From Alphaproteobacteria bacterium (GTDB lineage: Bacteria > Pseudomonadota > Alphaproteobacteria > UBA2966), in contig OZ219858.1 in the NCBI GenBank assembly GCA_964291395.2, positions 288,001 through 352,000 on the forward strand: a stretch of 64,000 nt of DNA. Direction: 5' to 3'. Shown here piece by piece: positions 38,346-57,468 of this stretch. Numbering within the stretch: position 1 is the first letter of the stretch; every line of letters starts with the position of its first letter. Under the pieces are notes generated by a model. It saw only the letters and a program-made list of their open reading frames with translations, was not told where the DNA came from and did not search any database. The translations under genes were made by a program, and so were the position numbers.

Positions 38346-38434
38346 GGAGGGGTGCCGGAGTGGCCGAACGGGGCGGTCTCGAAAACCGTTGTACGCACTG
38401 CGTACCGTGGGTTCGAATCCCACCCCCTCCGCCA
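38346..38434 (+). tRNA. tRNA-Ser (anticodon CGA)
   Basis: Acceptor GGAGGGG/CCCCTCC, anticodon arm GCGGT-CTCGAAA-ACCGT, long variable arm, GTGGG-TTCGAAT-CCCAC T arm, discriminator G and encoded CCA. Confidence 0.97.
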
Positions 38435-38489
38435 TTCTCCTATCCCGTCAATACCCATGAGTGCTCTGAAAACCGATGTGGGGCTGTCC

Positions 38490-38705
38490 GTGGCAAGGCT
38501 GAACGCCGCGAAGGTCTACGAGGCGAACCTGCCGCGGCGATGTGCTGGCCGTCCTGAAGCCGATACGGACCGTGAGGCCGGGAACGGCAGGACGCGTCCG
38601 GCAGCGCATTCGCACAATTCTCCGATGGTGCGGGGCACACGACTACTGCGCCGGCAACGCGGCGGGGGAAGCGCTGAACGGCGCCCTTCCGCCCATGCCG
38701 CGCCG
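38490..38705 (+). pseudogene. P4-like tyrosine integrase remnant
   Basis: GTG-ARLNAAKV N-terminus joined by deletion to DVLAVLKPIRTVRPGTAGRVRQRIRTILRWC...NAAGEALNGALPPMP (core-binding region). Catalytic domain absent. Confidence 0.75.
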
Positions 38706-38726
38706 GTCGGCCGGTCGGCCGCAAAG

Positions 38727-38760
38727 GCGAGACTAAGCGAGACTAGCCGAGACTAGGCGA
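38727..38760 (+). repeat. 10-bp tandem repeat, ~3.4 units (consensus GCGAGACTAG)
   Basis: gcgagactaa-gcgagactag-ccgagactag-gcga. The same unit recurs at 63654-63680. Confidence 0.8.
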
Positions 38761-38879
38761 ACAAAAGCACCTGCAGGGTCCGGCCGGAGCCTCGGCGGTG
38801 AAGCGGGGCGCCGCCCTCAGGACCGGGCCGTGACGCGGACGTCCGGACCGGAATCCTCGGGCAGTATGTCCGCCGCGAT

Positions 38880-38982
38880 GCTTTCGGCGACGCGCCGCCG
38901 CCTCGCGCACGGAATGCCGCGCGAGGTGGGCATAACGAGCCGTGGTCCGGGCCTGGGTGTGGCCGAGGAGCTTGTCGATCAT
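38880..38982 (-). pseudogene. Tyrosine integrase C-terminal remnant
   Basis: MIDKLLGHTQARTTARYAHLARHSVREAAAR = LLGH...TxxY catalytic box II. Confidence 0.8.
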
Positions 38983-39242
38983 GGGGTTGTTGAAAAGTCC
39001 GGCAGCCGTGATTCTCTGTCCCCATATCTTGTGTTCGTTTCTGGGACGCTACGAGATGTTGGGACGCAAGGCTCGCGACCAGTTGGAACTGTTCGTTACC
39101 GGGTCGCTCGATCAACTGGTGCCCGAGGATCATGTTCTGGCCCGCGTGGATCGTGTGCTCGACCTTGGGTGGTTGCGCGAGGAAGTGGCGGATTGCTACT
39201 GCGGGGATAATGGCCGTCCGGGTGTCGATCCGGAGATGGCGG
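38983..39242 (+). mobile_element. IS1182/IS5-like insertion sequence, left end plus truncated transposase (ATG 39056)
   Basis: End-like GGGGTTGTTGAAAAGTCC at 38983, then MLGRKARDQLELFVTGSLDQLVPEDHVLARVDRVLDLGWLREEVADCYCGDNGRPGVDPE (DUF772-type transposase N-terminus). Confidence 0.78.
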
Positions 39243-39363
39243 CCAACCCCGACGGAAAGATCGCCGTGCCTCCCGAGACTGACGCACCTGAGCCCGGCCG
39301 CCCCGGGACTGGACCACGTAGACCTTGCGGCCGCTGGCGTGGACGCGCACGCCAAAGCCGCCG
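39243..39363 (-). pseudogene. Integrase arm-DNA-binding (DUF4102-type) N-terminal remnant
   Basis: GFGVRVHASGRKVYVVQSRG then, after a frameshift, AGLRCVSLGRHGDLS. Confidence 0.72.
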
Positions 39364-39505
39364 CCCTCCCCGTGCAGGGCGCATGGCTCGGGCAGACCCG
39401 GCTGGATGGCAGGGAGCCCGGTGCATAAGAACAACGCGACATCCCTTCAGGCACTGCCACTTGCATGGCAACTCGGGTAAACTTATCCCGAATGTGAGGT
39501 CGGAC

Positions 39506-41248
39506 ATGCCAAACGCTTTGCTGGTCTACCCGGAACACCCTCCCACCTACTGGGGGGCCACCTATGCGCTGGAGATGTCGGGGATCAAAGCCGCCTACCC
39601 GCCTCTTGGGTTGCTAACCATCGCCGCGATGTTTCCCCCAGGCTATGAGCTCCGCCTGGTGGACATGAACGTGAATGCTTTGCATGACGCCGATCTCGAG
39701 TGGGCGGATTTTGTGTTCACGTCCACGATGATCACTCAGCAACTGTCGCTTCGTGCCGTGATCGAGCGGTGCAACCGCGAAGGGGTTCCGGTGGTAGCCG
39801 GTGGGCCTCATGCGACCATGTTTCACGAAGACATCGTAGGCGTGGACCACTTTGTGCTGGACGAGGTCGAAGAAACTTTCGGGGAATTCCTTGAGGATCT
39901 GCAAAGCGGAACGGCCAAGAGCATTTATCGGGAACCGCGAAAGCCGGATGTGACCCGGACGCCGGTTCCGCGCTTCGACCTCATCGATATGAAGAACTAC
40001 GCCAATATGAACGTGCAGTTCTCTCGGGGATGTCCTTTCGATTGTGAATTTTGCGACATCATCAAACTCTATGGTCGCGTGCCGCGTACCAAGTCGCCGG
40101 AACAGGTCGTGGAAGAGTTGGACTCCCTTTATCGGTTGGGTTGGCGCGGCCGCGTTTTCCTGGTTGACGACAACTTCATCGGGAACAAGCGAGATGCCAT
40201 GAATCTGCTGCCGAAGGTAGCCGAGTGGCAAAGGACAAGAGGACATCCGTTCACTCTGAGCACGGAGGCAAGCGCGAATCTTGCGCGAATGGACCAATTG
40301 ATGGATGCCATGATCGAGGCCGGTTTCGATACCGTGTTTGTCGGTATCGAATCTCCGAACCCCAGAACCCTGCTCAAGACCAAGAAGCCGCAAAATACCA
40401 GCAAGCACCAAGAGAACTACCTTTTCAATGCCGTTCGAAAAATCCAGCAGCATGGGATGCAAGTCCAAGGCGGGTTCATCTTGGGTCTGGATGGTGATGA
40501 CGAGGGCGTGTTCGACGCCCAGATCGAGTTCATTCAGGCGACCGGTATTCCCGTGGCCCCCATCTACCTGTTGACCGCCTTGAAGGGCACGGACATGTAC
40601 GAGCGCATGAAGTCGGAGAACCGGCTTCTGGAGGCGCCAATCGGAACCAATGCCATGCCTCTCAACTTCAAGCCGGAAATGGAATACAGGACATTGATCG
40701 AGGGATACGTGCGAGTGATAGGCACGCTCTACGATCCGACCCTGGAGAACTACTTCAGGCGTTGTCTGGCTCTGTTTAGGCATCTCAAACCTGTCCCACA
40801 CCTTCGAAAGCCTAAGGGCAGGAACGAGATCTACGCAGCCTTCATGGGTGTTCGCCGCTGTCTCTCAGACAGGCAAGTCCCTGCCTATTCGAAGTTCATT
40901 GGCAAGGTCTCCAAGGACTATCCACGCATGCTTCCCGAAGCAATCTATTTGGCTGCCATGGGTCATCACTTCGAGAGAATCAGCCGCCAGCAGATTGCAA
41001 TCCATGAGTTCCTCGGCTTCCTGAGAGGCGAGCTGGAGATGTTCCAGGAGGCGGCTTCGGGTGCCGCTTCGGAGGCCGAGGAAATCAGGAGCCGAAGAGA
41101 GACGTCGTTTGAACGAGCCCAGCAACGCTACGAGTCCATACCCGATGAGTTTCGATACCAGGGAGATGGGCTGGGCGATGCGCTAGAGTCCTTCCGACAT
41201 TCGGTGGATACACGGACGAATGAATTCGCGTGTGCTGAGATGGCATGA
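39506..41248 (+). CDS. Cobalamin-binding (class B-like) radical SAM enzyme, HpnP/DUF4070-type; candidate SwfC-like methylase
   Basis: GAGGT RBS before ATG 39506. B12-binding N-domain (PPLGLLTIAA, VVAGGPHAT), QFSRGCPFDCEFC (CxxxCxxC), VDDNFIGN, GFILGLDGD. 580 aa. Confidence 0.88.
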   Translation: MPNALLVYPEHPPTYWGATYALEMSGIKAAYPPLGLLTIAAMFPPGYELRLVDMNVNALHDADLEWADFVFTSTMITQQLSLRAVIERCNREGVPVVAGGPHATMFHEDIVGVDHFVLDEVEETFGEFLEDLQSGTAKSIYREPRKPDVTRTPVPRFDLIDMKNYANMNVQFSRGCPFDCEFCDIIKLYGRVPRTKSPEQVVEELDSLYRLGWRGRVFLVDDNFIGNKRDAMNLLPKVAEWQRTRGHPFTLSTEASANLARMDQLMDAMIEAGFDTVFVGIESPNPRTLLKTKKPQNTSKHQENYLFNAVRKIQQHGMQVQGGFILGLDGDDEGVFDAQIEFIQATGIPVAPIYLLTALKGTDMYERMKSENRLLEAPIGTNAMPLNFKPEMEYRTLIEGYVRVIGTLYDPTLENYFRRCLALFRHLKPVPHLRKPKGRNEIYAAFMGVRRCLSDRQVPAYSKFIGKVSKDYPRMLPEAIYLAAMGHHFERISRQQIAIHEFLGFLRGELEMFQEAASGAASEAEEIRSRRETSFERAQQRYESIPDEFRYQGDGLGDALESFRHSVDTRTNEFACAEMA

Positions 41249-41624
41249 TGAACATCGTCGAACCCACGTGTCGGCGAAGACGGGAGCATGGAAAATGGGC
41301 GTCGGGTCGTCATGATCGGGTTCCGGAGACCCGCCCATCCTCAAGGTGAATGTCTTCAATTGCGAACCATACGCGTCCCGCCAACCAGCCAGCTTGGCTG
41401 AAAATCCGTCAATGCACCAACATCCCAACTGGACCGGTCGACGGGGGCTGCCCATCGTGCGATATTTCTGAATTATTGGAGCAATATGGATTGAGGTGTT
41501 CGAAGGCAATACTGCGCCGATCAGGGAGGTATACGAATCGTGTTTCGCAGACCGATGCTCAAGGCAGCCCATCAGCACCGGAGGCCCGACGGGCTGATTT
41601 GAAGAACTTGACCCGTAAGGAACG

Positions 41625-42740
41625 ATGACACAGGATTCGACGAACCCTACCAGACCTGCCGAAAAGGCACGATGGCGCGGCTTCACGCAGTTAGCCCTGC
41701 TTCTTCTCGCAATCGCGGTTGCGCTGTACTTCGCCAGGGCTCCGAGCAGGGTGGAACGGGGACCGGTATCCGGTGCCGCACAGGCCAAACTGGTCCCGAG
41801 CATCGTTAAACCGGTCGCGACCGACCATGTCCTGACAGTCAATCTGACAGGAACCGTCAACCTCGCAAGGAAGACGACCGTAGTTTCCGAAGTCGTCGGA
41901 CGCGTGAACTGGGTTTCGCCCGCCTTCAGCAATGGGGGGACTATCCCGGCGAACGAGACGTTCATCAAAATCGATCCGGCTGAATACAGGCTTGAAGTCG
42001 AAGCGGCCAAGATGGCGGTCAAGGAAGCCGAGGCGCACGTCCAGATCGAAAAGGACCGCGCAGGCGAGGTCGCGAGAGCACAAGCACAGTTGGGAAAGGT
42101 AAGGGCGGCTCTGGCACTGGCAGAGCTGCGGCTCGAGCGGACCGAGATTTCGCTTCCCTTCGCATGCCGGGTTATCTCTTCGGATTTGGAGGTAGGTGAT
42201 CTGGTGGGGCCGGCCGACGCGGTCGGACGGATGTCGGTATTGGGTGTTGTCTATCGTCGGGACGCGCTGCAGGTCCGCGTGCCGATCGGTGCCGAAGACT
42301 TGGCGGATTTGGCCCCGGCGGTGGGTCGTTCGGCTCGGATCCATACCGATGGCGGCACATTTAGCGCTGAGGTGATGCGCGTATCGTCGGCGTTCTCGCC
42401 CAAGACGCGCCTTGCGGCGGTATTTCTCAAGTTTACGGAAGACGATTCGTCGGACAGGCCGCTCCCCCTTCCGGGCGAGTTCGCACACGTGGAGATTTCG
42501 GGACCCGAGCGCGACAATGTGTTTGTGCTACCCAAATCGTCTGCCTGGGAGAGCGACAAGGTCTGGGTGGTCAGAAACGGCGTGTTGAATTCCGCAACAG
42601 TCAGGACCATAGCCCGGACGGACGCCGGATGGGTCGTCGAGGCGTTCGACGCGGGCGAAGGCGTGGTCGTGGGCCCGCTGTCGGGTGCCCGGGAAGGCCA
42701 GGAGGTTGATGCCCGTCAAGCTACGACATCGTCTCAATAG
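41625..42740 (+). CDS. RND efflux periplasmic adaptor (MFP) subunit
   Basis: N-terminal TM anchor, VVSEVVGRV, IDPAEYRL helical hairpin, LERTEISLPF, PGEFAHVEI. Confidence 0.88.
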   Translation: MTQDSTNPTRPAEKARWRGFTQLALLLLAIAVALYFARAPSRVERGPVSGAAQAKLVPSIVKPVATDHVLTVNLTGTVNLARKTTVVSEVVGRVNWVSPAFSNGGTIPANETFIKIDPAEYRLEVEAAKMAVKEAEAHVQIEKDRAGEVARAQAQLGKVRAALALAELRLERTEISLPFACRVISSDLEVGDLVGPADAVGRMSVLGVVYRRDALQVRVPIGAEDLADLAPAVGRSARIHTDGGTFSAEVMRVSSAFSPKTRLAAVFLKFTEDDSSDRPLPLPGEFAHVEISGPERDNVFVLPKSSAWESDKVWVVRNGVLNSATVRTIARTDAGWVVEAFDAGEGVVVGPLSGAREGQEVDARQATTSSQ

Positions 42741-42784
42741 ACCTGTCTGATCAGTAACCCATCAAACGCCGAGCGCGAGCTATC

Positions 42785-45700
42785 TTGAAAAACGGACTGA
42801 TCGCATATTTTGTCGGGAATCCTGTCGCTGCCAGGCTCTTGATGATTTTCCTGATCCTCGGGGGTGTCATTGCCGGTTTACAACTCCGGTTCCAGAACGC
42901 CCCGGATCTGGACCTGCGTACGGTCACGATCACGCTGGCGTCACCGGGTTCCTCTCCCAGGGAGGTCGAGGAAGACATCAACCGCCGCATCGAGGAAAGC
43001 GTGGTCGGGCTCGCAGGAGTGGCCCGCGTCGTGGGCATAGCATCGGAAGGTTTCGCTCGAATTGAGGTGGAGCTCGAATCTTTTGCAAACGCGGACGCCG
43101 TCCTGGCTGATATCAAGAATGCGGTGGACGGCATTGAGAATTTTCCGCCCGCGAGCGCGGAGGCGCCGAGGGTGGAGATCAAGAAACTGTCGACCGAAGT
43201 ACTGACACTCTCCGTTTCGTCGCCGACACTGTCCGAGAACAGGCTCCGTCTGACGGCCGAGGACATTCGCGACGAGTTATTGGCCCTGCCTTCTGTGTCC
43301 TTGGTTCGCTTAAGGGGCACACGCGATAGAGAAATCGCGATCGAGATGAGCGAAGAGGAGTTGCGCCGCAATAATCTGTCCCTTTCCGAAGTGGCGAGGA
43401 AGGTGCGGCGGGCGTCGGTCAACCTGACATTTGGTGAATTGCGCACGGATGCAGGTGGAGTGGTCCTTCAGGTTATCGGGAAAAAAACGACCGGCAAGGA
43501 ATTTGAAAGCATTCCCCTGACGACTCGAGTCGACGGCACAATCATAAGGCTCGGCGACGTGGCAGAAATTCGCGACGGACTTGCCGACGAGCAAATAGTA
43601 TCCGAGGTCGACGGCAAGCCAACGCTGTTCGTTCGCGTCGAAGCGACCCAAGAACAATCGATCGTAGACGTCGCCGATAACGTCACGGAATGGCTTGCCA
43701 ACTACAAGCCTCCGGCCGGCGTCGAGGTCGATATCTGGGGTGACAGGGTCAAACCGATTTTCGACAGGTTCTCGGAAATATTGAGTAATGCCCTTATTGG
43801 AATCGTCCTTGTATTCGTTTGCCTCGTTCTTGTCTTCGATCTTCGGGTCGCGACCTGGATCACAGTGGGAATCCCCTTGTCGTTTGTCGCATCGTTGATG
43901 TTCTTTGAGATCGCGGGCCTGACCCTCAATATGGGAACGCTGTTTGCGTTCTTCTTGCTGATCGGCATCGTGGTCGACGACGCAGTTGTGGTAGGAGAGA
44001 GCATTGCGGCCGAAAGAGACCAGGGCAAGACCGCTCGGGAAGCGGCGATCTCTGGAGCCAAGATTGTTGTGGGGCCGATCACCGTAGGCGTACTCACAAC
44101 CGTTCTGGCATTTGTGCCACTTCTATTCGTAACGGCAGGAAATTACCAGATCGTACAGGTATTTCCCTACGTCGCATTTTTGGTCCTCTTTATTTCGCTC
44201 GCCGAAGCGTTCTGCATTTTGCCGTCGCATCTATCGCACGAAAAGGGATGGAGTCTTTCACCGCTACGCGATGTTCAGGAACGTGTGCGCGGTCGGCTCG
44301 ACGAATTGCGGGACGCCATCGTGGTCCCGATAGTCTCCTGGTCTGTCCGGCATGTCTTCTTGACATTTGCTTTCGGGATAGTTTTCGTGCTTGCCGCGAT
44401 TTGGTTGGTACGTTCAGAAACCGTCCGGGTGATCGTCTTTGACAGCGCCGCCAATCTCGGCAACACGATTCAGGCCGATCTGGAGTTGCCGGTCGGTGCT
44501 CCTTTCGATGCGACCGTAGCCGCGGCGCAGCGTTTCGTCCGAGCGGCCCGCGGCATTAACGAACAACTTGAAGGAGAGTCGATCAAGTCGGTTAGCCTCA
44601 TTGTGGGCAACCTTGGCGGCATCGCTGCGTCTCGGACGGGTCAAGACGACTCGATTCGGAGTCATCTCGCAACGGTGAGGCTGCAGCTCCATGACCGACC
44701 GCTTCGCGAGGCGTCGCCCGAAGTCATCGAGAGGGTATGGCGTCAAAATGTCGGCAACATGTCAAACTTGGAAAACGTCTCCATCCAGACCACCCGGGTC
44801 CGGTTCCAGCCCCCGGTCGCATACGCGCTCGTTCACGACGATCTTGAGGTCCTCCAGAAGGCTGCCGAAGAGTTGAGGTCGTTCATGGGCACGGTGTCCG
44901 GTCTCTACGGGCTATCGGACAGCCTGTCGCTCGGCAAGCGGTACTTCGAAATTCAGCTGACCCCGGCGGGGCAGGCGGCCGGGCTGACGCCGGCGATGAT
45001 CGGCAAGCAGCTGCGGGCCAACCTGCACGGTCTGGAAGTCCAGCGAATCCAACGCGGCCGCGACGAAATAAGAGTTGTGGTCCGGTATCCGGCGGAACGG
45101 CGGCGAAGCCTGCAAGAACTCGCCAGAGAGCGGATTGTCGGCCGTAACGGCAAAGAAATTCCGCTGTCCACCGTGGCACGTATCACTGAAAAACGGGAAC
45201 TCGCCACACTGACGCGCATCGATGGAAAGCCTGCGGCCTTGGTCAATGCATTTGCCGATTTCAACGAGACCACTCCGATACGGGCAAGGCGCGCAATCGC
45301 GCAGGAGTTCCTTCCCGACTTGCTCGCAAAATACCCTGGCCTCTCGATTTCCCGGGACGCCGGAGCCCGCGAGGAAAGGGCTATGCTCGAAACGTTAGGA
45401 GTGCTGGTGCCGATCGTCCTAGTCATCATGTACGGGCTGATGGCGTCATTCCTGCGGAGCTATTGGAAGCCGCTCGTAGCCGTGGTCGGCGTCCCGGTCG
45501 CCTTCGCCGGGGCTGTGATCGGCCATTGGGTGCTAGGTTGGCATCTGACCGCCATATCTCTGTTCGGCATGATTGGGGTCGCCGGGGTCATCGTCAATGA
45601 CGCGTTGGTTTTGCTCGATCGCTACAACACAATCCGCCGCGAGAACAAATCGATCCCGGCTATCGCGGCTGCGGCCGGGGCCACGCGAGACCGCTTTCGC

Positions 45701-45889
45701 GCGGTATTCCTGACCTCTCTGACAACCGTGTTGGGCCTCTCGCCGTTGCTCTACGAGCGAAGCGACGAGCTTTTGTTCCTCGTGCCGTTCGTGGTCAGCA
45801 TGCTGGGTGGCCTCCTTGCCGCGGGTATCTTCACACTGTTCGTCCTGCCGGCTCTGGTGATGTTCGTCGAGGGCCGCAGGGAAGCCTAG
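42785..45889 (+). CDS. RND efflux permease (AcrB/AcrD/AcrF family)
   Basis: 1034 aa. NPVAARLLM, PGSSPREVE, IGIVVDDAVVVGE, GVIVNDALVL, RFRAVFLTSLTTVLGLSPL. TTG start. Confidence 0.93.
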   Translation: MKNGLIAYFVGNPVAARLLMIFLILGGVIAGLQLRFQNAPDLDLRTVTITLASPGSSPREVEEDINRRIEESVVGLAGVARVVGIASEGFARIEVELESFANADAVLADIKNAVDGIENFPPASAEAPRVEIKKLSTEVLTLSVSSPTLSENRLRLTAEDIRDELLALPSVSLVRLRGTRDREIAIEMSEEELRRNNLSLSEVARKVRRASVNLTFGELRTDAGGVVLQVIGKKTTGKEFESIPLTTRVDGTIIRLGDVAEIRDGLADEQIVSEVDGKPTLFVRVEATQEQSIVDVADNVTEWLANYKPPAGVEVDIWGDRVKPIFDRFSEILSNALIGIVLVFVCLVLVFDLRVATWITVGIPLSFVASLMFFEIAGLTLNMGTLFAFFLLIGIVVDDAVVVGESIAAERDQGKTAREAAISGAKIVVGPITVGVLTTVLAFVPLLFVTAGNYQIVQVFPYVAFLVLFISLAEAFCILPSHLSHEKGWSLSPLRDVQERVRGRLDELRDAIVVPIVSWSVRHVFLTFAFGIVFVLAAIWLVRSETVRVIVFDSAANLGNTIQADLELPVGAPFDATVAAAQRFVRAARGINEQLEGESIKSVSLIVGNLGGIAASRTGQDDSIRSHLATVRLQLHDRPLREASPEVIERVWRQNVGNMSNLENVSIQTTRVRFQPPVAYALVHDDLEVLQKAAEELRSFMGTVSGLYGLSDSLSLGKRYFEIQLTPAGQAAGLTPAMIGKQLRANLHGLEVQRIQRGRDEIRVVVRYPAERRRSLQELARERIVGRNGKEIPLSTVARITEKRELATLTRIDGKPAALVNAFADFNETTPIRARRAIAQEFLPDLLAKYPGLSISRDAGAREERAMLETLGVLVPIVLVIMYGLMASFLRSYWKPLVAVVGVPVAFAGAVIGHWVLGWHLTAISLFGMIGVAGVIVNDALVLLDRYNTIRRENKSIPAIAAAAGATRDRFRAVFLTSLTTVLGLSPLLYERSDELLFLVPFVVSMLGGLLAAGIFTLFVLPALVMFVEGRREA

Positions 45890-46177
45890 GAGATCGAAGC
45901 CTCGGGAGACTGAGGGACCCTCGCTGATGCCTTCGCTTGAGTCCGGCACCAGTCGCGCTGATGTAATTGTGTCACTGCGTTACGATGATGAAGCCACGCA
46001 CCTCAGCGGCGGCGGGATCGTGTGCCAGCGCGTCGGCGTCGAAGAGCACGCTCGGGACGACCGGATCGATGGCCGCGCGCGCTCCCTTCCATGGATGAGG
46101 TTCGTGCGAACCCTTCCCTTTGCATTGACCGTCAGCACCTCGCTATGCAGGCGCCGCATCAGTGGGCGAGTTCGAAC

Positions 46178-46942
46178 ATGAACGTCAACGGGCAAACGGC
46201 GATCGTTACCGGGGGCGCATCCGGACTGGGCGAAGCGACCGCGCAAGCGCTCGCGGCCGCTGGCGCCAGGGTGGGCATCCTCGACATGAACGAGGATCTG
46301 GCACGAAGGGTTGCGGCTGAGATCGGCGGTGCCGCCGCGGTGTGCGACGTGGTCGACTCCGCGAGCCACGAGGCCGCCGTCGCAGAAGTGCGCGAGCAAT
46401 TGGGACCGGCACGCATATTGGTCGCCTGCGCGGGCATCGCTCCCAGCGCCAAGCTGATAGGACGCGACGGCAAAGCAAGTCCGCTCGGAACAGTCACCCG
46501 CGCGATCGGCGTCAACCTGATCGGCACTATCAACTCGTGCCGGCTGGCTGCCGCCGACATGGCCGCTCTGGAGCCGATGAACGACAACGAGCGCGGCTGC
46601 ATCGTAACCACGGCCTCGGTTGCCGCCTTCGAGGGGCAGAGCGGACAGCTCGACTACGCCGCGTCGAAGGGCGGCGTCGCGGCGATGACGATCCCGCTGG
46701 CGCGCGAGCTTGCCAGCGAGGGCATCCGCGTGAACTGCATCGCGCCCGGTCTGATGGACACGCCGATGATGGGCGGCTTGTCAGGGCCGGCGAAGCAATT
46801 TCTGCTCGAAACGACGGTTTATCCCAAGCGCCTCGGAGGCGCGGACGAGTACGCCGCGCTGGTCGTCCATATCGCGGAGAACACCTTCATGAACGGCTCA
46901 GTGATCCGGTTCGATGGCGCGCTCCGAATGGGACCGAAATAG
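46178..46942 (+). CDS. SDR oxidoreductase, HSD10 / type II 3-hydroxyacyl-CoA dehydrogenase-like
   Basis: TGGASGLG, CAGIA, TASVAAFEGQSGQLDYAASKGGV, IAPGLMDTPM, NGSVIRFDGALRM. Confidence 0.9.
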   Translation: MNVNGQTAIVTGGASGLGEATAQALAAAGARVGILDMNEDLARRVAAEIGGAAAVCDVVDSASHEAAVAEVREQLGPARILVACAGIAPSAKLIGRDGKASPLGTVTRAIGVNLIGTINSCRLAAADMAALEPMNDNERGCIVTTASVAAFEGQSGQLDYAASKGGVAAMTIPLARELASEGIRVNCIAPGLMDTPMMGGLSGPAKQFLLETTVYPKRLGGADEYAALVVHIAENTFMNGSVIRFDGALRMGPK

Positions 46943-47235: not shown

Positions 47236-50200
47236 GTGGCTCTAGCAAGTACGGACAACGATGTTGCCATCGTCGGGTACAGCCATCGCATGCCCGGTGG
47301 CATACAGTCGGATTCCGATTTCTGGACCCTGCTCAGCAGGCGGGACATCGTCCAAGAGCCGATCACCGACCGCTACGGAAAAGGCCACTTGCCCATCGGG
47401 GAGTTTTCAGGCCCGGGGCGTCTTGCCAGTCCCTATGAGGGACTGTTTCGCGACGATGAAGAACTGCTTTTCGACCGCACGTTCTTCGGCATGTCCCACA
47501 ACGAACTGAGGCAGACCGAACCGCAGGTGAGGATGCTGCTGAATTGCGCGTGGGAAGCCATCGAACACGTTGGATGGGACCTTCATTCGTTGCGCAACAG
47601 CCCCACCGGGGTCTTCATAGGTTCGCAGGTTCCGGCCGTGTCCAACTGGCGGCCGCAGCATGGCGTCACGGAGAATTCCGTCTCCGGCATCAGCCTCGCC
47701 ATGCTGGCCAACCGGGTCTCCTACCACTTCAACCTCATGGGGTCGTCCGCAACCTACTGCACGGCCTGTTCCGCCGGCCTGAGCGCCCTGCACGCGGCGA
47801 TGAACGCGCTGGCGTGCGGCGATTGCGACCAGGCTCTGGTCGGCGCCGTCACCTACCTGGGCAGCGCCAGGATGAGCAGCGGCTTCAACCTCATGGGAGT
47901 CATCAGCCCGGAGGGCAAGTGCCATTCCTTCGACGCCGAAGCCGACGGCTACATGCGCTCCGAAGGATCGTTCGTCTTTGCCATCAAACCCCTGGCGGCG
48001 GCCGAGCGGGACGGGGACCCGATCTACGCCGTGATCGAGGCGACCGCGGTCAACGCGGCAGGGACGGCCGACGGCACGCCCGGTCTCGCGCCGGGGCGTT
48101 ACATCAGCGCGCCAACTCGTCATTCCCAAGTCCAGCTGATGCGCGAGGCCTCGACGCGCGCCGGCCGCACCGCTCTCGACTTCGACTACATCGAGGCGCA
48201 CGCGACCGGAACCGCAGTCGGCGATCCCATCGAGGGCAACGCCATCGCCGAGGCCTTTGGCGGCTTCGAGCGCGAAATCCCGCTGCGGGTCTCCAGCGTG
48301 AAGAGCAACGTCGGGCACATGGAAGCCGCCGCCTTCCACTGCGCCCTGCTCAAGGTCGTTCTGATGATGCAACGGCGCACCTTCGCGCCGACATCGAACA
48401 ACTTTCAGGTGCCCAATCCGGAGATCGACTTCGAGAGCTGCCCCATGCGGGTGCAGACGGACTGCGAGTCGTTCCCCGACCGTCCCGTGGTCGTCGGGAT
48501 CAACTCGTTCGGCTTCGGCGGCGCCAACGGGCATTGCGTGGTGCGCGAGTACCGGCCGGCGCTGTCAAGGCTCTGGTCGGTGCCGCTGGCGCCGGAGGCG
48601 GGCTACATGGTCCCGCTCTCGGCGCGAACGCCCAAGGCGCTCACCGAGAGCGCGCGCCGTCTGCGCCGCCTGCTCGATGAGCAGCCGATGGACCTCTACG
48701 CGCTCGCCGGCAACCTCAGCCGCCGCCGCACCCATTTCGCCGCACGGACGGCGTTCGCGGCGCACAGCTTGCTCGATCTGACCGAGGCGCTGGATGCCTT
48801 CGTGGAAGACGGCGCTGCCATCGCCACGGCGGAGGAGGGCGAGCGGCGGCTGGTCATGGTGTTCGCCGGGCAGGGGACGCAGTGGGCCGGTTGCGGGCGC
48901 GATCTCTACGAGGCCCATCCCGTCTTCCGCCGCGCCATCGACGCCATCGACGAGCACTGGCGCGCGCATGCTGAGACCTCGTTGCGCGAGGCCTGTTTCA
49001 CGGCTCCCCAGGAGGAGCTCGACGAGGTTCAACTCGCCCAACCCGCGATCTTCATGATCCAGTGCGCGCTGGTAGAACTGTTCAAGACCTGGGGCGTCTA
49101 TCCCGACTGCGTGGTGGGACACAGCTCCGGCGAGGTGGCCGCGGCGTACGCGTGCGGCGCGCTTTCGCTCGCCGACGCGACGCGCCTGGTCTACCACCGG
49201 GCTACCCTGCAGCAGCGCGTGGCCGGCTCCGGCCGCATGCTGGCGATCGGCCTCGACAAGACGGGTGTGGAGGAACTGCTGGACGGGCTGAACATCCCCT
49301 TCCGCCTAGACGGCGACCGGCCCGTTCAGGTCGAGATCGCCTGCGAGAACGCGCCGGCAAACACCGTCATCTGCGGTCGCGAAGACGATCTGCAGCCGGC
49401 GATGGAGGAGCTGGATCGGCGCAGCCTCCAGAACCGGCTGATCCCCGGCAACATCGCCTTTCACTCCCGGGCGATGGACGCCATCAGGGACGATGCGCTG
49501 GAGGCGCTCTCGTTCCTCGACGATCTCTCCTTCGACGCCGACGTGCAGTTCATCTCGTCTGTGACGGGTGCCGAGACGGAGCGGCTGGACAGCGCCTACT
49601 GGTGGTCCAACATCCGCCAGGCAGTCCGCTTCGCCGCAGCGATGGAGACCGTCAAGCGCGACCACCGGCCCGACGTGGCGCTGGAGCTCGCGCCTCACTC
49701 GGCCCTGCAACCCATCGTCGCGCAATGCATGGAAGACGTGGCATCGCCGCCCGTCTCCATTCCAACCCTGATGCGGGACACCGATACCTGCCTTGGCTTC
49801 CATGAGGCTTTGGGCAACCTCTTCAAGGCCGGCGTGTCGTCTGGACTTCGCTGCGCAGTACCCGCGTCCGGACCCCATCGTCCATCTGCTGCCGGGGCAT
49901 CCGAGGGACGAGCAGAAGACCGTCGACAACAGGCTGGACGACGAGTTTTTCCTGAAACAAGGCGACTACGCGCATGGTCCGCTGGTCGGCCACCGGATCG
50001 CGAGCGATCATCTCCTGTTCGAAGCACGGCTCTCCGAGGCGGCCTTTCCCTGGCTCGCGGAACACCGTGTCCATCACGCGTCGATCATGCCGGCCGCCGG
50101 CTACATTGAGCTGATACTGCAGGCCCTGGGCGGCATTCCGGTCCATTTCGACGTACTCGAGTTCCTGCAGCCGTGTCCCATCCCGAGGACGCCTGTCAGG

Positions 50201-53200
50201 CTGCAAACAGCCCTTTATCCGGTTCCCAATTCCGACGGTGAGTTCACCTTCCAGATTTCGACGCTGCCCTACGAGGTCGATCCGAAGAGCGAGCTGCACT
50301 GCCGCGGGAGGGTGCGCTTGATCAGCGTGCGACCGGAGCTGGACGCACCGGAAACGCTGTCGGACTTGGAGACGTCGGCTTACGAGCCTCTTCAATATGC
50401 CGCCGACGATGAAATCTACGAGCGCTTCGAAGTGGTTCTCGGGGAAACCTTCCAGTACGGCCCCCACTTCAGGAACATTCGGAAGCTCAGGCGTGAGCGA
50501 GAGACCGGCCGCCTCCTGCTGGATGTCGGCGTCGACGAGGCGCTGTGGGCGGGTGCAAGAGAAGAGGGATACGTCTCCTTTCCGCCTCTTCTCGACGGCG
50601 GGCTGCAGTCGTTTCTCTACGACTTGATGCTTGGCGCTGATCGTTTTGCCATTCCTCTGCGGGCGGAAAACGTGACGTTCTTGGGCGCGCCGACGGTGCC
50701 GCGCCTCGTTTGCCAACTGACCTATCCCGGCGGCAAGCGGTACGAAGTCGATGACAAGGGTCAATACAACGTTCCCAACGGCGAGTGGGTTTCCGGCCGG
50801 TTGAACTTCTACGACGAGGCGACCGGCGCGCTCACCCTTCACGTCGAGAAATACATCTCCTTCATCTCGTATCCCAGGCGGGTTGACCTGCCGCACAGCA
50901 AGCACCGTATCGCCTGGCAACCGAAGTTCGTCGCCGACGGCCGCGAGATCGCGGACCGGCTGCCCGGGGGCGAGATCGAGCCGTCGGCCCTGCTTGCCGC
51001 CCTGGAACGGGGGGAGGACGGCGACGGGCGAGTCTGCCATGCGCTGGAGTTCGCGGGCTCCAGGGAGCCGGAGCAGACCGTGCTTCAGAGCTGCCTCGAC
51101 CACCTCTCACGGGAGGAGACGCAGAGCGAGTTCTGGCTCGTCGCCGACGATGAGGAGGGCGCGCGGACATGCTTCGAGGCCTTCCACGCGCAGGACGCCG
51201 CGCTGCGCTTCGACTGCCTCGATCCGGCTGCGCGGCAGCCCTCCGCGCTCGATACGGGCCTGCTGCGCTCCGGTGCGGCGGAAGTCCTGTTCCTCCACCG
51301 CGACGAGGATGCGTTCATGCCCGACGACTGGCGGTTCTGGCAGGAGGTGGCGGTCGCGGGCGGATTGGCGCTGGTTTCCCACGCGGACGGCGCGGACATA
51401 GAGCCCGGCGCGGGCTGGACCACGCTTCGTGCCGGACGGCGAGCGACTCTGCTGCAGGCGCCGCCGCAGCGGGCGGGCGAAAGGGATGAGGCGGTGCTGC
51501 CGGCTCCGCGCTGGGTGATGGGGGCGCCCGATAGCCTGGCGAGGGACTGGACATCCCTACTCGACAATCCTGCGGTCTACCCGATCCCCTTCGAGGGCCC
51601 CGCGTCAAGCGATCCCTTCGAGGTCGAGACGTGGCCGCAGGCGGCGGACGTGCAGGCGATCGACGTTTTCTGCGACTGGGATCCGGAGGATGCGACGGGC
51701 GAGAGGGCGGTCTCGCAATTCGTCGCCCTGATTCAGTCGCTGGTGCCCTACAGGATCGACCAGGCCAGCTGCCCATGCCGCGTCACCGTGGCGACCCGCA
51801 AGGCGGTGTTCGAGCCTGAGGATGCACGCGGCAGCGCGCTCTGGGGTGCGGTGCGCACCATGGCGATGGAGATCGGCGAAGAGGCCCAGCTCGACTTCCG
51901 CCTCGTGGACCTGGGAGCCGCCGACGACCTGGAGACGCTGGCGTGGATCGCGCGGCACGACCTGCGCGAGCGCGAGCTTGCGGTGCGCGAGGGTCGCCTG
52001 TGGGTGCCGCGCGTCGTAAGCAATCGCGATCAGTACCCGAGCATCCCCGCCGGAGAGGACCCTCCCTACCGGCTCTTCCTGGACAATGCGGGGCAGATCG
52101 GCGGCCTCAGGATGAAGACCTACGATCCTCCGCCGCTGGCCCCGCACGCCGTGGAGATCGACGTCGTCGCGTCCGCACTCAACTTCCGCGACGTCATGGT
52201 GACGCTCGGGCTGCTGCCGTCACTGGCCTACGAGCGCTCCGCACTCGGCCGCGAGGTCGGCATGGAAGCGAGCGGCGTAGTCCGCCGCGCCGGCACGGCC
52301 GTGGAAGGGCTCGAGCCCGGCGATGAGGTGGTCTTCGTCGACGGCGGCTGTATCGCCAATCGCACTGTGGTGGGCCAGCACCGCGTGTTCCTTAAGCCCG
52401 CGGGCCTCACCATGGAAGAGGCCGCGTCATCGCTCTCGGTCTACGTCACCGCCTACTACTCGCTGATTCACCTGGCCCGGCTGCGCAAGGGCCAGCGCGT
52501 CCTGATTCACTCGGCCATGGGCGGCATCGGACAGGCCGCCATCGCGCTCGCCAACAACGTAGGCGCCGAGATTTATGCAACCGCGGGGAGCGAGAACAAA
52601 CGCGACCAGTTGCTCGCGCTCGGCGTCCGGGCGGCCTTCGATTCCCACAGCGAGGACTGGTACGACGGGTTGATGAAGGCGACCGGCGGCCAGGGTGTCG
52701 ATGTCGTGCTGAACTCCCTCGCGGGCCGCCACGTTCCGCTCTGCTTGCAGGCGCTCAGGGCGGGCGGCTGGCATTGCGAAATCGGCAAGGTCGACATCTA
52801 CGCCGACAGCGCCCTCGGCCTCCGCGTCTTCCGCAAGAACCTGCGCTTCGCGGCCATCGACCTCGACCGCCTGATGGTGGACGACCCGCTGCTCTCCCGC
52901 GAGCTCTCCCAGGCCTGCCTCGACCTGCTCGATCGTGGTGTGGTGCCGCCGTTGCCGGTCACCGCTTTCTCCTACGGCGACTACGCGAAGGCGCTCCGCC
53001 TGATGACCTCCGGCAAGCACCAAGGAAAACTGGTGCTGAAGGCGCCGCCGGCGTCCGCCGATCCGGACTTTCCCATCGACGACCGGCGGCCGTTGCTGGA
53101 CCCCGAGGGGACCTATCTCGTGACCGGCGGCCTCGGCGGCTTCGGTCCGCGGCTCCTGCCCTACCTGGTCACAGCCGGCGCCCGCCACCTGACCCTGATG

Positions 53201-54298
53201 GACCGCGATCCCGAGCGCCGCCGCAGCGAGAACTGGCTGCGCCAATCCACGACTCTTGCGGACATAGGGCAGGGGGTCGAGATCGACATCGTTTCCGGCG
53301 ACGTGGCGGAGGAGGCCGACGTGCGCCGCTGCGTCGCCAACGTGAGGAAGCCGCTCAAGGGCGTGTTCCATCTCGCCGGCGCGCTGGACGACTGTCTGCT
53401 GGCGGACATGACGGCGGAGTCCATCGCCCGCGTGTTCGCGCCGAAGGCCCACGGCGCGCTCTATCTCCACCGTGCTACCGAAGGCCTCGCGCTCGATCAC
53501 TTCGTCATGGTGTCGTCGCTCTCGTCGGCGTTCGGCAATCCGGGGCAGATCAACTACGGCGCCGCCAACGCCTACATGGACGGCCTCGCCGCCTGCCGCC
53601 GCCGGCAAGGACTGCCGGCTTTGTCCTACAACCTGGCGGCGGTCTCCGATGCGGGCATGGCCGCGCGCAACCTCGGCCTGCTGCGATTGATGAAAGCCGC
53701 GGGCATACCCCCGGTGAGCAGCTATTGCGCCATCGCCAACCTCGACTATGCGCTCCGCACGATGGCCGATGGCGACCATCTGATCACCGCACTCTTCAAG
53801 CGCGTGCTCTGGAGCGTCGATTCCGCCGACTACATGCGGTCCGGCCGCCTGATGAGCAACCAGGATGCGTTCAAGATGGACTCCGACGAGCAACTGACGG
53901 TCGATGGCGTCATGGCGCAGATCGCCGCCAAGGTCGCCGAGCTCTGCGGCCACGACGAGGGCGGTCTGGAGGAACCCCTCTCCAGCTTCGGCCTCAACTC
54001 CATCTCCGTCGCCGAACTGGGGGCGTTCATCCAGAGCGAGTTCGGCTTCCAGGCGAGCGCGCTCGAGCTGATGACCACGGCCTCGTGCCAGTCGCTGGCG
54101 CACGCCATCGTCTTCGGCACGACGAGCGACGAGGAGGCGGAAGCCGAGACGGACGGTGAAGACATCGACGATGCGCCCCTCGCCGCGCAGCGCCTTGTTC
54201 GCCGCAAGCCCTCGGTGTTCGCCAGCCCGCCCGAAGACCACTTCCCGCCGGCGCCCTGTTCCGGAAAAGGCGCCGCGAGTGCCCTGACCGCCGAGTAG
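47236..54298 (+). CDS. Mono-modular highly reducing type I PKS/FAS, KS-AT-DH-pseudoMT-ER-KR-ACP (SwfA-like); one frameshift near 49840
   Basis: KS: CTACSAG, EAHATGT, KSNVGH, INSFGFGGANGH. AT: FAGQGTQW, QCALVEL, GHSSGE, IAFHS. DH: HRVHHASIMP, LLDGGLQ. ER: LNFRDV, IHSAMGGIG. KR: TGGLGGFG, LDD, GQINYGAAN. ACP: FGLNSIS. Removing 1 nt at ~49840 joins ORFs 47236-50109 and 49793-54298 into 2353 aa. Confidence 0.9.
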
Positions 54299-54360
54299 CG
54301 CGATCCGGCGACAGGGGAGCGGGCTCCGCATCGGCGCAGTGAGTATCAAGGCAAGGCAGC

Positions 54361-56856
54361 ATGGCCGACGCATGTGTCGCTGACCGGACGGTGCCGCCGC
54401 TCATCGGCCTCCTGCCGCCGCAATGCCGGAGAGACGTGGACGAGCTGCGCCGCGTCATTCACGCGACGGTCTCGCGAGAGACGCCGGCCGAAGCCGTGAC
54501 ACCAACAGACTTTCGAGAGGTTTTGCTGACCGGGGCAACCGGCTTCGTCGGACGCTTCTTCCTGCGCGAGCTTCTGTGGCAGAACGAGCAGCTGATCGTG
54601 CACTGCCTGGTCCGCGCCGAGAGCGCCGAACACGGGTTCGAGCGCTTGCGCGACGCCCTGGAGCGGGCCGAAATCTGGGAGGAGGAGTGGACGTCGCGCC
54701 TGCGCGTGGTGCCCGGCGACGTCTTCCAAGAGCATTTCGGACTGAGCGAGTCAGTGTTCGACGGGCTCTGCCAGCGGATCGACGCGGTCTATCACCTGGC
54801 TGCCAACGTGGGCCTCGTCCAGTCCTATGCCGATATACGCGACGAGAACGTGCTGGGCCTTCGCTCCGTGCTCGAGCTCTGCCTGCGGACCCGACTCAAG
54901 CATCTGTTTTACGGATCCACCATGGCTGTTTTCCCCGAGTATTTTTGTGACTTTTCGCTGGAATACAGACAGAGCCGCATCGACGATCAGATGTCCCCCG
55001 ACCTCGCCGACATGAAGAAGGCCTTTCCGCTCGGCGCCATCGGGTATCCGTGGAGCAAGCTGGTGGCCGAGCAAGGCGTGTTGTTCGCGCAGGCGGCCGG
55101 TGTGCCGGTCGCGATCTTTCGCCTGCCGCAGATGGGGCTCTCCAGCACGGGGTACACGCAGGCAAACAATTTTCCGGCCCGCCTGTTCGCTGCGGCGATG
55201 CAACTGGGAAAGGCACCGGAAGGCTTTTCCATTCAACGGAATGCCGAGCCGGTCGATACCGTCAGCGAAATCTGCACGGCAATCTCACTCAACTCCGACC
55301 GCCGCTTCACCGTCTATCACTGCTGCGATCCGAATCCGCCCTACGACGATCTCGAAGTGGCGGACTTCGGCTTCTACTGGGAAGTAGTCCCCTACCAATC
55401 CTTCAGGAGGTCGTGCCAGGCTCTCGGCGACAGCTCTCCGCTGCGCGGGCAGTGGGTCCTGGTCGACCACTTCGCGCCCTATTGGTTCGGCGAGGACAAG
55501 GCGGGACACGCGCCGCCGATCAGCGATCGCGCCATCCGGGAGGATTGCCCGCACCCGATCAAGTGGCCGGCACTGCTGATCCGCCACGCGCGCTCCTACG
55601 ACTGGGTCAGGCGTCATCGGGAGAGATGGCCCTATCCGGTCCCCCAAGGCCGTCTGGACTTCGACGGACTCATCGCTCAGGCCGAGAGATACGCCGAGCG
55701 CATGGGCGTGCCCTTCGAGCCAACCTGCCCCTCGTGGATGCGCGCCGGCCTCAAGCAACTCGTGGAGGCGCTGAAATCGCCGGAGTCCGGGCTGCGGGAA
55801 ACCCGGGTCAGCCACGTCATCTATGGGTTGACCCGTGCGCTGCGCAACAATGCAAAACTCGCCCGCGAGGCGCGGCAGCACCCAGAGATCGAGCGGGAGG
55901 AGATCGAGCGGCCGGTCTTCATCGTCGGCATCAACCGTACCGGCACGACATTTCTGCATCGTCTGTTGTCGCGCGATCCCCAGTTCTGGGCACTGCGGCG
56001 CTACGAATTGACGGAGCCGGTGCTGTCCTCTGGCAAATACGCCACCGTCGCAGGCACGGCCGAGGATCCCCGCCGGGCCTACGCGGAAGAGCTACTAGGC
56101 GCGACCAATGTCGTCGATACGCTCTCCGGGCTCCACCGCACCGATATCGACGAGCCAGAGGAGGACTTGTGGATCCTCTGGCTTACGTTCTCGACCTGGA
56201 TATTCGCGACGGCGTACCACGTACCGGCCTATGGTCGTTGGCTCGCAGAAGCCGAGCCACGCAATGCCTACGCGCATCACCGGCGCGTCATGCAGCACTT
56301 CACCTGGCAGCGGCGGCAGCGGGAGCCGCAGAGCCAGCGGCACTGGCTGCTCAAGATGCCTTTTCATCTCATGGAATTGGAAGTGCTGCTGGAGACCTAT
56401 CCGGATGCCGTCTTCATCCAGACCCATCGCGAGCCCGTCGAGTTCATGGGCTCGTGGAACAGTATAGTGGAGCGGATACGAGGCTTTTCCACAGAGCCGA
56501 GGCCGCCGCACGAGGCCGGCGCCGAGCAGCTGGCCTTCATGAGCGGCATGTTGAACGGCGCGATGCGGTTTCGAGCCTCCAATCCCACGCTCGAAGAACG
56601 CTGGGTCGACGTGCGCTACGCCGATCTGGTCGATGACCCGATGGCCGTCGTGAACGACATCTACGCACGCCTCGGCTGGCCCCTTGAACCGCTCGCCGCC
56701 CACGCCATGCAGGGGTGGCTCACGCTTCAAGAGGAGCAGCGCCGGCACGAACCCCGGCACGAGTACAGGCTGGAGGACTATGGCCTCACACCGGCGGCCG
56801 TGAACGAGGCGTTCGCGCCGTATCGTGAGTACGTTGCGACCCGCGGTATCGCGTAA
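54361..56856 (+). CDS. Thioester reductase (R) - sulfotransferase (ST) fusion (SwfB-like)
   Basis: N-half: VLLTGATGFVG, VYHLAA, GYPWSKLVAE (YxxxK), IFRLP. C-half: PVFIVGINRTGTTFLHRLL (PAPS 5'-PSB loop), WLLKMPFH, FIQTHREP, YADLVDDP. Confidence 0.9.
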   Translation: MADACVADRTVPPLIGLLPPQCRRDVDELRRVIHATVSRETPAEAVTPTDFREVLLTGATGFVGRFFLRELLWQNEQLIVHCLVRAESAEHGFERLRDALERAEIWEEEWTSRLRVVPGDVFQEHFGLSESVFDGLCQRIDAVYHLAANVGLVQSYADIRDENVLGLRSVLELCLRTRLKHLFYGSTMAVFPEYFCDFSLEYRQSRIDDQMSPDLADMKKAFPLGAIGYPWSKLVAEQGVLFAQAAGVPVAIFRLPQMGLSSTGYTQANNFPARLFAAAMQLGKAPEGFSIQRNAEPVDTVSEICTAISLNSDRRFTVYHCCDPNPPYDDLEVADFGFYWEVVPYQSFRRSCQALGDSSPLRGQWVLVDHFAPYWFGEDKAGHAPPISDRAIREDCPHPIKWPALLIRHARSYDWVRRHRERWPYPVPQGRLDFDGLIAQAERYAERMGVPFEPTCPSWMRAGLKQLVEALKSPESGLRETRVSHVIYGLTRALRNNAKLAREARQHPEIEREEIERPVFIVGINRTGTTFLHRLLSRDPQFWALRRYELTEPVLSSGKYATVAGTAEDPRRAYAEELLGATNVVDTLSGLHRTDIDEPEEDLWILWLTFSTWIFATAYHVPAYGRWLAEAEPRNAYAHHRRVMQHFTWQRRQREPQSQRHWLLKMPFHLMELEVLLETYPDAVFIQTHREPVEFMGSWNSIVERIRGFSTEPRPPHEAGAEQLAFMSGMLNGAMRFRASNPTLEERWVDVRYADLVDDPMAVVNDIYARLGWPLEPLAAHAMQGWLTLQEEQRRHEPRHEYRLEDYGLTPAAVNEAFAPYREYVATRGIA

Positions 56857-57102
56857 CATTGCCGACGCCACGGGTATCGTATGTCTTCTTGCGGGACTGA
56901 GCGCCCGGTTCTCCGAGGCGCCTCTCGAAATTCGGATAGGCCCGTGAGGGTCCGACTCAACGCTCCGGCCGATCAACATTAGAGGTGGGAAGCGTTCATC
57001 CCATTTCCTCCTCGTTCCATAACCCAACGATGGACCAATCCACTGAAAGTGAATCAGTCGAGGTACTACTTTGGGGCGGCGAGTCGGGAATTCCAGCGGC
57101 GT

Positions 57103-57423
57103 GTGAATCTGATGCTCGGCGAGATGCCGGTGCGCGCGGTCGTGTACTCCCATTCCCACATCGATCATTTTGGCGGCGTGCACGGCGTGATCAGCGAGGC
57201 TGACGTGACCTCCGGAGACGTGCAGGTCTTTGCGCCCAAAGGCTTCATGCAAGCGGTTGCCTCGGACAACGTGTCCGCGCGAACGGCCATTTCGCGACGA
57301 GCGACAATGCAGTACGGGCGGGCAGCCAATATGCTTGCGGATGTATTCGAACAACTCGGCTACCAATACGAAAGCGCGAGCTTGCGTAACGTGTTCCTGA
57401 CCGCGGCGCAGGAATTGCGCAAT
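57103..57423 (+). pseudogene. SdsA1-type alkyl sulfatase remnant (internally deleted)
   Basis: LGEMPVRAVVYSHSHIDHFGGV...VQVFAPKGFM...SRRATMQYG (MBL-fold metal motif) fused directly to LADVFEQLGYQYESASLRNVFLTAAQELR (end of the dimerisation domain). Confidence 0.8.
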
Positions 57424-57445
57424 TGCAATGAGTTAAGAGAGAGCA

Positions 57446-57468
57446 CGAATCCCACCTCTTCCGCCATT
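57446..57468 (+). repeat. att-type direct repeat: copy of the tRNA-Ser 3' end
   Basis: 21/23 identity to 38414-38436. Both differences are C>T. Confidence 0.85.

Follow-up and report, generated by a model that had tools for sequence, protein, structure and literature searches.

A probable genomic island at tRNA-Ser(CGA) carrying swf polyketide genes in a sponge-associated alphaproteobacterium

How did a polyketide synthase (PKS) cluster of the swf type come to lie between a tRNA-Ser(CGA) gene and a glnE gene? The question is raised by a window of 64,000 nucleotides (C3:288001-352000) from the metagenome-assembled genome of a sponge-associated alphaproteobacterium, which comprises three contigs and 4,161,607 bases. 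We suggest, with a probability of about two in three (0.68), that positions 38437-57468 of this window are a genomic island of ~19 kb, set by a P4-type tyrosine integrase at the 3' end of the tRNA-Ser(CGA) gene. Two 23-nt repeats would be its attL and attR cores and the swf genes its cargo, and the integrase would later have been destroyed.

Names of swf genes follow PMC3908369 (Della Sala et al. 2013). Transfer RNA genes were detected with ARAGORN, gene domains were assigned with Pfam and hmmscan, and relics were compared by tblastn and blastn. The genome carrying the window is labelled G000, its five congeners are G001-G005, and L-numbers denote loci from other genomes. G005 is the closest genome compared (Obg 81%, GlnE beside the island 82%). 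None of the conclusions depends on G261 or G062, two genomes marked as unpublished.

The tRNA gene, its displaced 3' end and the borders

The two ends of the island are marked by the following features.

38346-38434, plus strand: intact tRNA-Ser(CGA) gene (ARAGORN), the proposed integration target
38414-38436, plus strand: direct repeat on the attL side, an exact 23-mer running from the T loop to the CCA of the tRNA plus TT
57446-57468, plus strand: direct repeat on the attR side, a displaced tRNA-Ser 3' fragment, 21/23 identical
57525-60627, plus strand: right flank common to G005, with a promoter region and a glnE paralogue (open reading frame (ORF) 57592-60627; Pfam GlnE and GlnD_UR_UTase)

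The tRNA is the only one in the window, and among the 50 tRNAs of the genome there is a single Ser-cga. The repeat is made up of the last 21 nt of the tRNA and 2 further nt; its second copy has the same orientation as the tRNA and differs at two positions, both C>T. An original prediction, made from the sequence of the window, had placed the swf PKS cluster inside a tRNA-Ser(CGA) island delimited by a 23-bp direct repeat, with the second copy 19 kb downstream and just after a sulfatase relic (57049-57424). Both statements hold.

No match to the 23-mer was obtained in 100 dinucleotide-preserving shuffles of the window. In the whole genome, with up to 3 mismatches allowed, it is found at five places, namely the 3' ends of four tRNA-Ser genes (cga, gga twice, tga) and the fragment at 57446. 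The 23-mer is thus no dispersed genome-wide repeat, a possibility that the original prediction had named as fatal to it, and the fragment is its only non-tRNA copy in 4.16 Mb. The 21 tRNA bases of the repeat are common to other tRNA-Ser genes (gga twice exact, tga with 1 mismatch), so only the two trailing T residues tie the fragment to the cga gene. An alignment of 57380-57445 revealed no tRNA body 5' of the T loop, the likeness stopping at the T-loop C. Downstream of tRNA-Ser(cga) in G000 and G002-G005, the fragment at 57446 is the only tRNA 3' fragment (local alignment score of 36, where the null reached 26 at most); none was found after the corresponding tRNA in G002, G003, G004 or G005.

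From the fragment to the GTG start of the GlnE-family gene (57592) there are 124 nt, in agreement with the ~120 nt predicted, but the glnE concerned, which had been regarded as a core gene, is one of two paralogues. The other is found at C1:1286936-1289803, and the two are ~52% and 42% identical over their two halves. Both are present in G001, G002, G004 and G005, and G003 shows only the C1 type.

The left flank consists of proB-obg-rpmA-rplU. Nucleotide homology with G005 (blastn) ends at 38435 and resumes at 57525, with 84.9% identity over 57525-60444, so the genome-specific DNA is 38436-57524. The attR fragment lies 57 nt inside the right edge of this DNA, and all three swf genes fall between the repeats, which bears out the cluster boundaries that had been drawn from them.

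The island is absent from the tRNA site in all five congeners. Between the same borders G005 has 12.6 kb of different DNA (L033 4485-17082), encoding a 1749-aa DEAD/UvrD helicase, a glutamate dehydrogenase and a HEPN protein. The helicase is flanked by two integrase remnants of G005's own (L033 7261-7445 and 12972-13070), which have no nucleotide similarity to those of the window. In the same locus, ~100 nt upstream of glnE2, the glnE paralogue at this site (L033 17082-17180), are repeated at 15098-15195 (76%), bracketing the HEPN region. In G002 the tRNA is followed by a type III restriction-modification/HicB insert of 6.5 kb with DUF2806 (L037 3201-9711); the site thus holds defence-like cargo in G005 and G002.

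In G001 and G004, the tRNA is directly followed by a block that in G000 is located 338 kb away and inverted, at C3:654,900-664,300 (a Mem_trans transporter, a XerC-like recombinase and others). The same block also follows the tRNA in G002. A rearrangement breakpoint therefore coincides with the 3' side of the tRNA; a single inversion was considered as its cause in G001, G002 and G004 and rejected, because in G001 glnE2 and the tRNA share a strand. In G003 the tRNA is followed by 5.7 kb of other genes, after which the genome is collinear with the window from 61077, and this GlnE gene is missing. As the DNA 3' of the tRNA varies in all congeners, this side of the gene is a hot spot.

The two C>T differences had been explained as decay of an unselected copy. 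The native 21-mer is present at this tRNA in 5/5 congeners, so the 57446 fragment is indeed the derived copy, and both mismatches are of the type stated. However, in 4 of 400 other genomes of the class, genuine tRNA-Ser genes (two cga, two tga) end in exactly this variant 21-mer, and their 5' acceptor strands have changed to match (GGAAGAG once, GGAAGGG three times). Many natural alleles differ from the native one by two changes at most; by our own uncomputed estimate, pure decay would match a real allele with a chance of a few per cent. The differences may represent a foreign tRNA allele instead of decay. The fragment may then be the attP half of the incoming element, retaining the tRNA allele of its former host, which would need a crossover 3' of position 69. 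Naming a donor from this allele was tried and given up, as no link was found between the allele and any swf-bearing genome tested: swfB is present in 0/4 genomes with the attR allele in a tRNA-Ser gene, and the allele in 0/3 of the swf-bearing genomes G420-G422.

Remains of an integrase and of an insertion sequence

At a distance of ~420 bp from the tRNA the minus strand carries the wreck of a P4-type integrase, which reads towards the tRNA. Its pieces are separated by part of an insertion sequence (IS).

38724-38766, no strand assigned: short REP-like (repetitive extragenic palindromic) repeat of the host genome, in the spacer between tRNA and integrase relic
38859-38985, minus strand: C-terminal piece of the integrase relic (last ~42 codons, with the LLGH..TT.RY.H tyrosine motif), one frameshift near 38890
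38978-39242, plus strand: 5' stub of the IS (left end and first ~78 transposase codons), at integrase codon ~376, the remainder of the IS being deleted
39303-39416, minus strand: N-terminal arm-binding piece of the integrase relic (aa ~42-79), found with Arm-DNA-bind_3, tblastn and blastn

A six-frame search of the genome with PF00589 gave seven matches at E<=1, six of which are full or larger. The weakest (38920-38991, E 0.163) is 486 nt from the tRNA end, and its translation reads a typical C-terminal tyrosine-recombinase motif. By hmmscan this piece matches Phage_integrase positions 146-169 (E 0.028), and Arm-DNA-bind_3 is matched 280 nt upstream (E 0.0048), on the same strand and in N-to-C order. 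Comparison by tblastn with intact integrases of 401-436 aa from other Alphaproteobacteria assigned the C-terminal piece to aa 376-407 of a 417-aa protein (72%, E 3e-10) that carries all three P4-type domains (Arm-DNA-bind_3, Phage_int_M, Phage_integrase). In a shifted frame, the last 12 aa of a 401-aa integrase are matched at 83%. The arm piece gave 47% over 38 aa (aa 42-79, E 6e-7) and 74% over 23 aa (E 3e-6). The arm relic was not among the 10 candidates of a genome-wide PF13356 search, and its assignment comes from hmmscan and tblastn. The genome's own integrases, used as tblastn probes on the relic with very short words, produced mostly noise and were replaced by intact integrases from other genomes.

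A DNA search with 38437-39505 covered 401 genomes of the class. The arm piece has blastn matches to the integrases of G295, G070, G095 and G332, and the intact genes of the last three match both pieces, which are 945 nt apart there versus 374 nt here. Only aa ~42-79 and 376-417 of a protein of ~417 aa remain in the window, with frameshifts. The complete catalytic domain (R-H-R-Y) is absent, and the core between the pieces has been replaced by the IS stub.

Over 275 nt the stub matches the left end of an IS in G320 with 90% identity (E 1e-102); for the copies in G212 and G176 the identity is 81% and 75%. A full copy, in L063, encodes a 486-aa transposase with DUF772, DDE_Tnp_1 and DDE_Tnp_1_6. 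The stub is the only trace of this IS in the genome, which fits its arrival together with the integrase.

We propose that the island was integrated at the 3' end of the sole tRNA-Ser(CGA) gene by a P4-type tyrosine integrase acting through site-specific recombination. In this view the attL and attR cores are the two 23-nt repeats, the tRNA staying whole and a copy from the T loop to the CCA marking the far end. Comparison of the integrase pieces and the stub with intact genes suggests that, after insertion, the IS landed at integrase codon ~376, and that a deletion then probably took away ~300 codons of the integrase together with most of the IS, of which 265 nt were left. With its integrase gene destroyed, the island would be unable to excise by its own enzyme.

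Some further observations concern this region. The same IS is present at the same codon (~376, in a PMIGKLLGH stretch) of P4-type integrase genes in three genomes, represented by the window, L063 1501-3060 and L065 1589-2567. Its orientation is alike in G000 and G176 and opposite in G320, and the G212 copy is not accompanied by an integrase. The IS, whose 25-nt inverted repeats overlap its near-palindromic target, may prefer integrase genes. The REP-like repeat, of ~35 nt, has >30 copies over all three contigs; blastn of 38437-38860 against the genome itself gave >30 matches of 26-64 nt at 84-96%. A 37-nt stretch 3' of tRNA-Ser(cga) (38476-38512) recurs with 92% identity at C1:1511210-1511246, ~110-150 nt downstream of tRNA-Ser(tga), and may be a vestige of a related element at that position. 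The genome also has an intact P4-type integrase 50 kb beyond this copy (C1:1561244-1562476).

The swf cargo and its distribution

In PMC3908369, swfA is described as encoding KS-AT-DH-ER-KR-ACP, swfB a reductase joined to a sulfotransferase, and swfC a radical SAM enzyme of the B12 type, and the order of accessory genes varies between the swf loci of sponge symbionts. The genes of the window have the same domain sets, with an accessory order that is likewise variable. The window differs from the clusters described there in its att-like ends, in the HlyD/RND and short-chain dehydrogenase/reductase (SDR) genes between swfC and swfA, and in a frameshift in swfA. The cargo is as follows.

39506-41248, plus strand: swfC, B12-binding radical SAM enzyme (Pfam B12-binding, Radical_SAM, DUF4070)
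41625-42740, plus strand: HlyD-family membrane fusion protein (Pfam HlyD_3)
42785-45889, plus strand: RND (AcrB-type) efflux transporter (Pfam ACR_tran, 5e-126)
46022-46942, plus strand: SDR (Pfam adh_short, 1.2e-42)
47236-54298, plus strand: swfA, mono-modular PKS with KS-AT-DH-ER-KR-ACP (all domains by Pfam)
54361-56856, plus strand: swfB, thioester reductase and sulfotransferase (Pfam NAD_binding_4, Sulfotransfer_3)
57049-57424, plus strand: alkylsulfatase relic (~125 of some 650 residues), from Pfam pieces in the 154-aa ORF 57049-57513 (Alkyl_sulf_dimr 1.7e-8, Lactamase_B 1.8e-7)

The start of swfC is placed at 39506 because homologues align from residue 1 of this start; the listed ORF, from 38942, runs across the integrase relic. 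The swfA gene is split into two overlapping ORFs, 47236-50109 (KS-AT) and 49793-54298 (DH-ER-KR-ACP), owing to one extra base near 49838-49841. This base is found in the window only: G005, L049 and L052 align without the insertion, and swfA of G005 is a single frame of 2410 aa. The extra base could be a real frameshift (reflecting decay or a two-protein form) or an assembly error, and contigs from public runs give nothing for or against it at ~49840.

The island contains a complete swf set (swfC, swfA, swfB). Its first gene, swfC, is 90 nt from the detectable integrase remnant, and only the sulfatase relic lies between swfB and the attR fragment. Of the nine large ORFs of the island scanned with Pfam, one has no match and the others are genes for biosynthesis or efflux, or relics; no conjugation or phage structural genes were found among them. 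Inside the swf interval, no second repeat set, transposase or integrase was detected (large ORFs by Pfam, and PF00589 in six frames). The companions of the swf genes recur elsewhere. HlyD is also found beside swf genes in G005 and L049, and the SDR is 82% identical to that adjoining swf in L051 and L052. Taken across G005 (without swfC), L049, L051 and L052, the HlyD/RND, SDR and swfC genes also accompany swfA/B.

The distribution of swf is patchy and incongruent. Among 23 genomes of the order, swfB is present in two (G000 and G005); swfC is found in 0/5 congeners and KS-AT in 1/5. Nucleotide identity between G000 and G005 is 73% for swfABC, versus 83-88% for the flanks. The swfB of the window is 75% identical to that of L052, 73% to L051 and 64% to G005; Obg shows the reverse, with 62% to the genomes of L051 and L052 and 81% to G005. 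The swf genes of the window thus resemble their counterparts in distant lineages more closely than those in the sister species. Together with the decayed integrase beside the tRNA and the patchy occurrence of swf, this supports the integrase-mediated acquisition that had been proposed. The acquisition probably took place after the split from the G005 lineage, and the integrase and the swf cargo seem likely to have come in together, in a single event.

Eighteen loci with swfC relatives were found among genome contigs, and their neighbourhoods were scanned for up to 10 kb per side. In the closest 12 (L044-L055), swfC is 76-83% identical in 11 and 63% in one. No integrase was found around any of the 18 loci, nor did PF00589 match inside the three swf loci of the swf-bearing genomes G420-G422, as far as contig numbers match. 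Metagenome contigs contain swfC relatives of <=47% identity only (15 loci).

The sister species carries an swf insertion at a different site and on another contig. In G005 it occupies 16.7 kb (C1 ~753,533-770,191, also given as ~753,550-770,218; L042/L034/L043) and contains an SDR relic, swfA, swfB, HlyD and RND, in an order different from that of the window and without swfC. It is bounded by a 21/24 direct repeat (the best of 200 shuffles is 19/24), which includes the last codons and the stop of the flanking gene for a tRNA_bind-domain protein. The two flanks are contiguous in G000 at C3:958358-958460, so the swf site of G005 is empty in G000. Both swf islands are thus bounded by repeats and lie at the 3' end of a gene; the target in G005 is a protein gene with a tRNA_bind domain, whereas that in the window is a tRNA. 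No integrase remnant was detected in the G005 swf island. The SDR beside swfA in G005 (L034 14533-14860) consists of two short pieces in different frames and lacks ~220 nt present in the window.

Alternative histories and significance of the island

Several observations weigh against a single arrival of the swf genes on an integrase-bearing element. A clean empty site, with the tRNA directly joined to the right flank, is found in 0/5 congeners, so the tRNA-Ser-glnE junction that had been expected in relatives was not encountered. The same tRNA has received other cargo and other integrase relics in G005; these indicate that the site was hit repeatedly and that cargo could be layered. Near swfC, the reading frame of the integrase relic ends 60 nt from the gene start and the last alignable residue is 90 nt away. 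The relic lacks its first ~20-40 codons, and the junction between it and swfC may be secondary. A crossover in the T loop predicts the native allele in the displaced copy, which differs at two positions. Base composition points both ways. GC is 63.1% in the island, ordinary overall against 63.9% in the genome, and SDR, swfA and swfB are typical of the genome. Among 1.5-kb stretches of the genome, however, swfC (55.8% GC), RND (58.3%) and the sulfatase relic rank in the lowest 1-3%, as foreign genes might; the composition of the island is a mosaic. The gene order around swf is different in every genome seen. Finally, no tRNA-Ser, tRNA-Ser fragment or integrase was found in the sequence, up to 10 kb per side, around the 12 closest swfC loci, 3 of which show swfA/B there, so the same element was not seen elsewhere. 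Integrase-borne transfer as a route for the wide spread of swf, as originally envisaged, is thus supported at this locus and is thin as a general account.

These points lend some weight to a layered history, in which the repeat, the integrase relic and the IS stub belong to an older element, to which the genes for swf, efflux and the SDR were added subsequently, either through another insertion or through homologous replacement between the conserved flanks. We consider this unlikely, though it is the strongest of the alternatives. It would accommodate the variable DNA 3' of the tRNA in every congener (G005, G002 and G003 having other genes there), the GC mosaic, the truncation of the integrase 5' end right at swfC, the shifting swf gene order, and the swf loci elsewhere that lack integrases. 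In the window, however, the swf genes occupy the interval along its whole length, and neither a second set of repeats nor a transposase or integrase was detected in it (Pfam on the large ORFs, PF00589 in six frames). Moreover, the IS stub is the sole copy in the genome, as would be expected if it arrived with the integrase, and the swf island of G005 too has att-like repeats at the 3' end of a gene. The single integrase-borne arrival is therefore preferred.

It is highly improbable that the fragment at 57446 is no att site at all and arose by chance, by duplication of a tRNA-Ser gene of which it is the stump, or by copying from another tRNA-Ser gene: 21/23 nt are shared by four tRNA-Ser genes of the genome and sequences resembling a tRNA T arm and acceptor occur commonly in the class, but the absence from 100 shuffles, the lack of any other non-tRNA copy, the orientation shared with the tRNA, the position 57 nt from the resumption of G005 homology and the integrase relic at the other end of the island all argue for an att site, and a stump should show some tRNA body 5' of the T loop.

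There is likewise only a very small chance that the island was wrongly joined to the chromosome during metagenome assembly. The estimated contamination of the genome is 9.01 (%), and no contig among those listed from public runs bridges the left junction at 38436; on the other side, the island lies within a contig of 1.33 Mb, a REP-like repeat of the host has settled in its spacer, and contigs of other runs cover parts of it. Parts of the stretch are contained in 20/22 listed public runs, most of them labelled sponge metagenome. The evidence from these runs consists of assembled contigs, short ones only, from four of them. The right junction is covered in two runs (57139-57537 with 4 differences, 57461-57756 with 0 differences), and the integrase-relic region also in two (38457-38812 and 38731-39329). 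No tRNA-to-glnE joint or circle junction occurs among the 15 joints listed for public-run contigs, 132 further joints being outside that list.

Islands linked to tRNA genes and equipped with P4-type integrases are known to carry polyketide and nonribosomal peptide synthetase clusters, as in the Yersinia high-pathogenicity island (asn-tRNA) and the E. coli pks/colibactin island (asnW). The island described here resembles these in its insertion at a tRNA 3' end, its short repeats of that end, an Arm-DNA-binding integrase beside the tRNA, and a biosynthetic cargo. In contrast to them, its integrase gene, which reads towards the tRNA, has been wrecked by an IS and a deletion, its host is an uncultured sponge-associated alphaproteobacterium, and its cargo is swf with an efflux pump. 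As mobile-DNA biology the island is textbook material, a new example of a well-known type of element.

No description of swf on a tRNA-bounded island was found in the literature searched; supplements, which may hold locus maps, were outside the search. In the accessible text of PMC3908369 the words 'horizontal' and 'tRNA' are absent, and 'integrase' occurs only in an ORF table, where three recombinase ORFs are given on fosmid PSA11D7. The swf cluster is among the few biosynthetic clusters reported from many species of sponge and from several phyla of bacteria, "independent of bacterial taxonomy" (PMC9426513).

The window and the sister genome together provide two dated, delimited swf insertions with att-like repeats, each absent from the corresponding site in the other genome. 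As one of the two retains the remains of an integrase, swf gains a concrete mechanism, a visible means of transfer and exact cluster limits. These limits indicate that swfC, HlyD/RND, SDR and the alkylsulfatase belong to the swf unit here, and they are useful for heterologous expression and for surveys of the spread of the cluster. More tentatively, and with considerable doubt, swf might travel among unrelated sponge symbionts on small integrase elements that target the 3' ends of genes and are locked in place by integrase loss, the attR copy being the tRNA-Ser allele of a former host. If so, the attR fragment would be a footprint left by the donor lineage, and one could trace directly how swf spreads independently of taxon.

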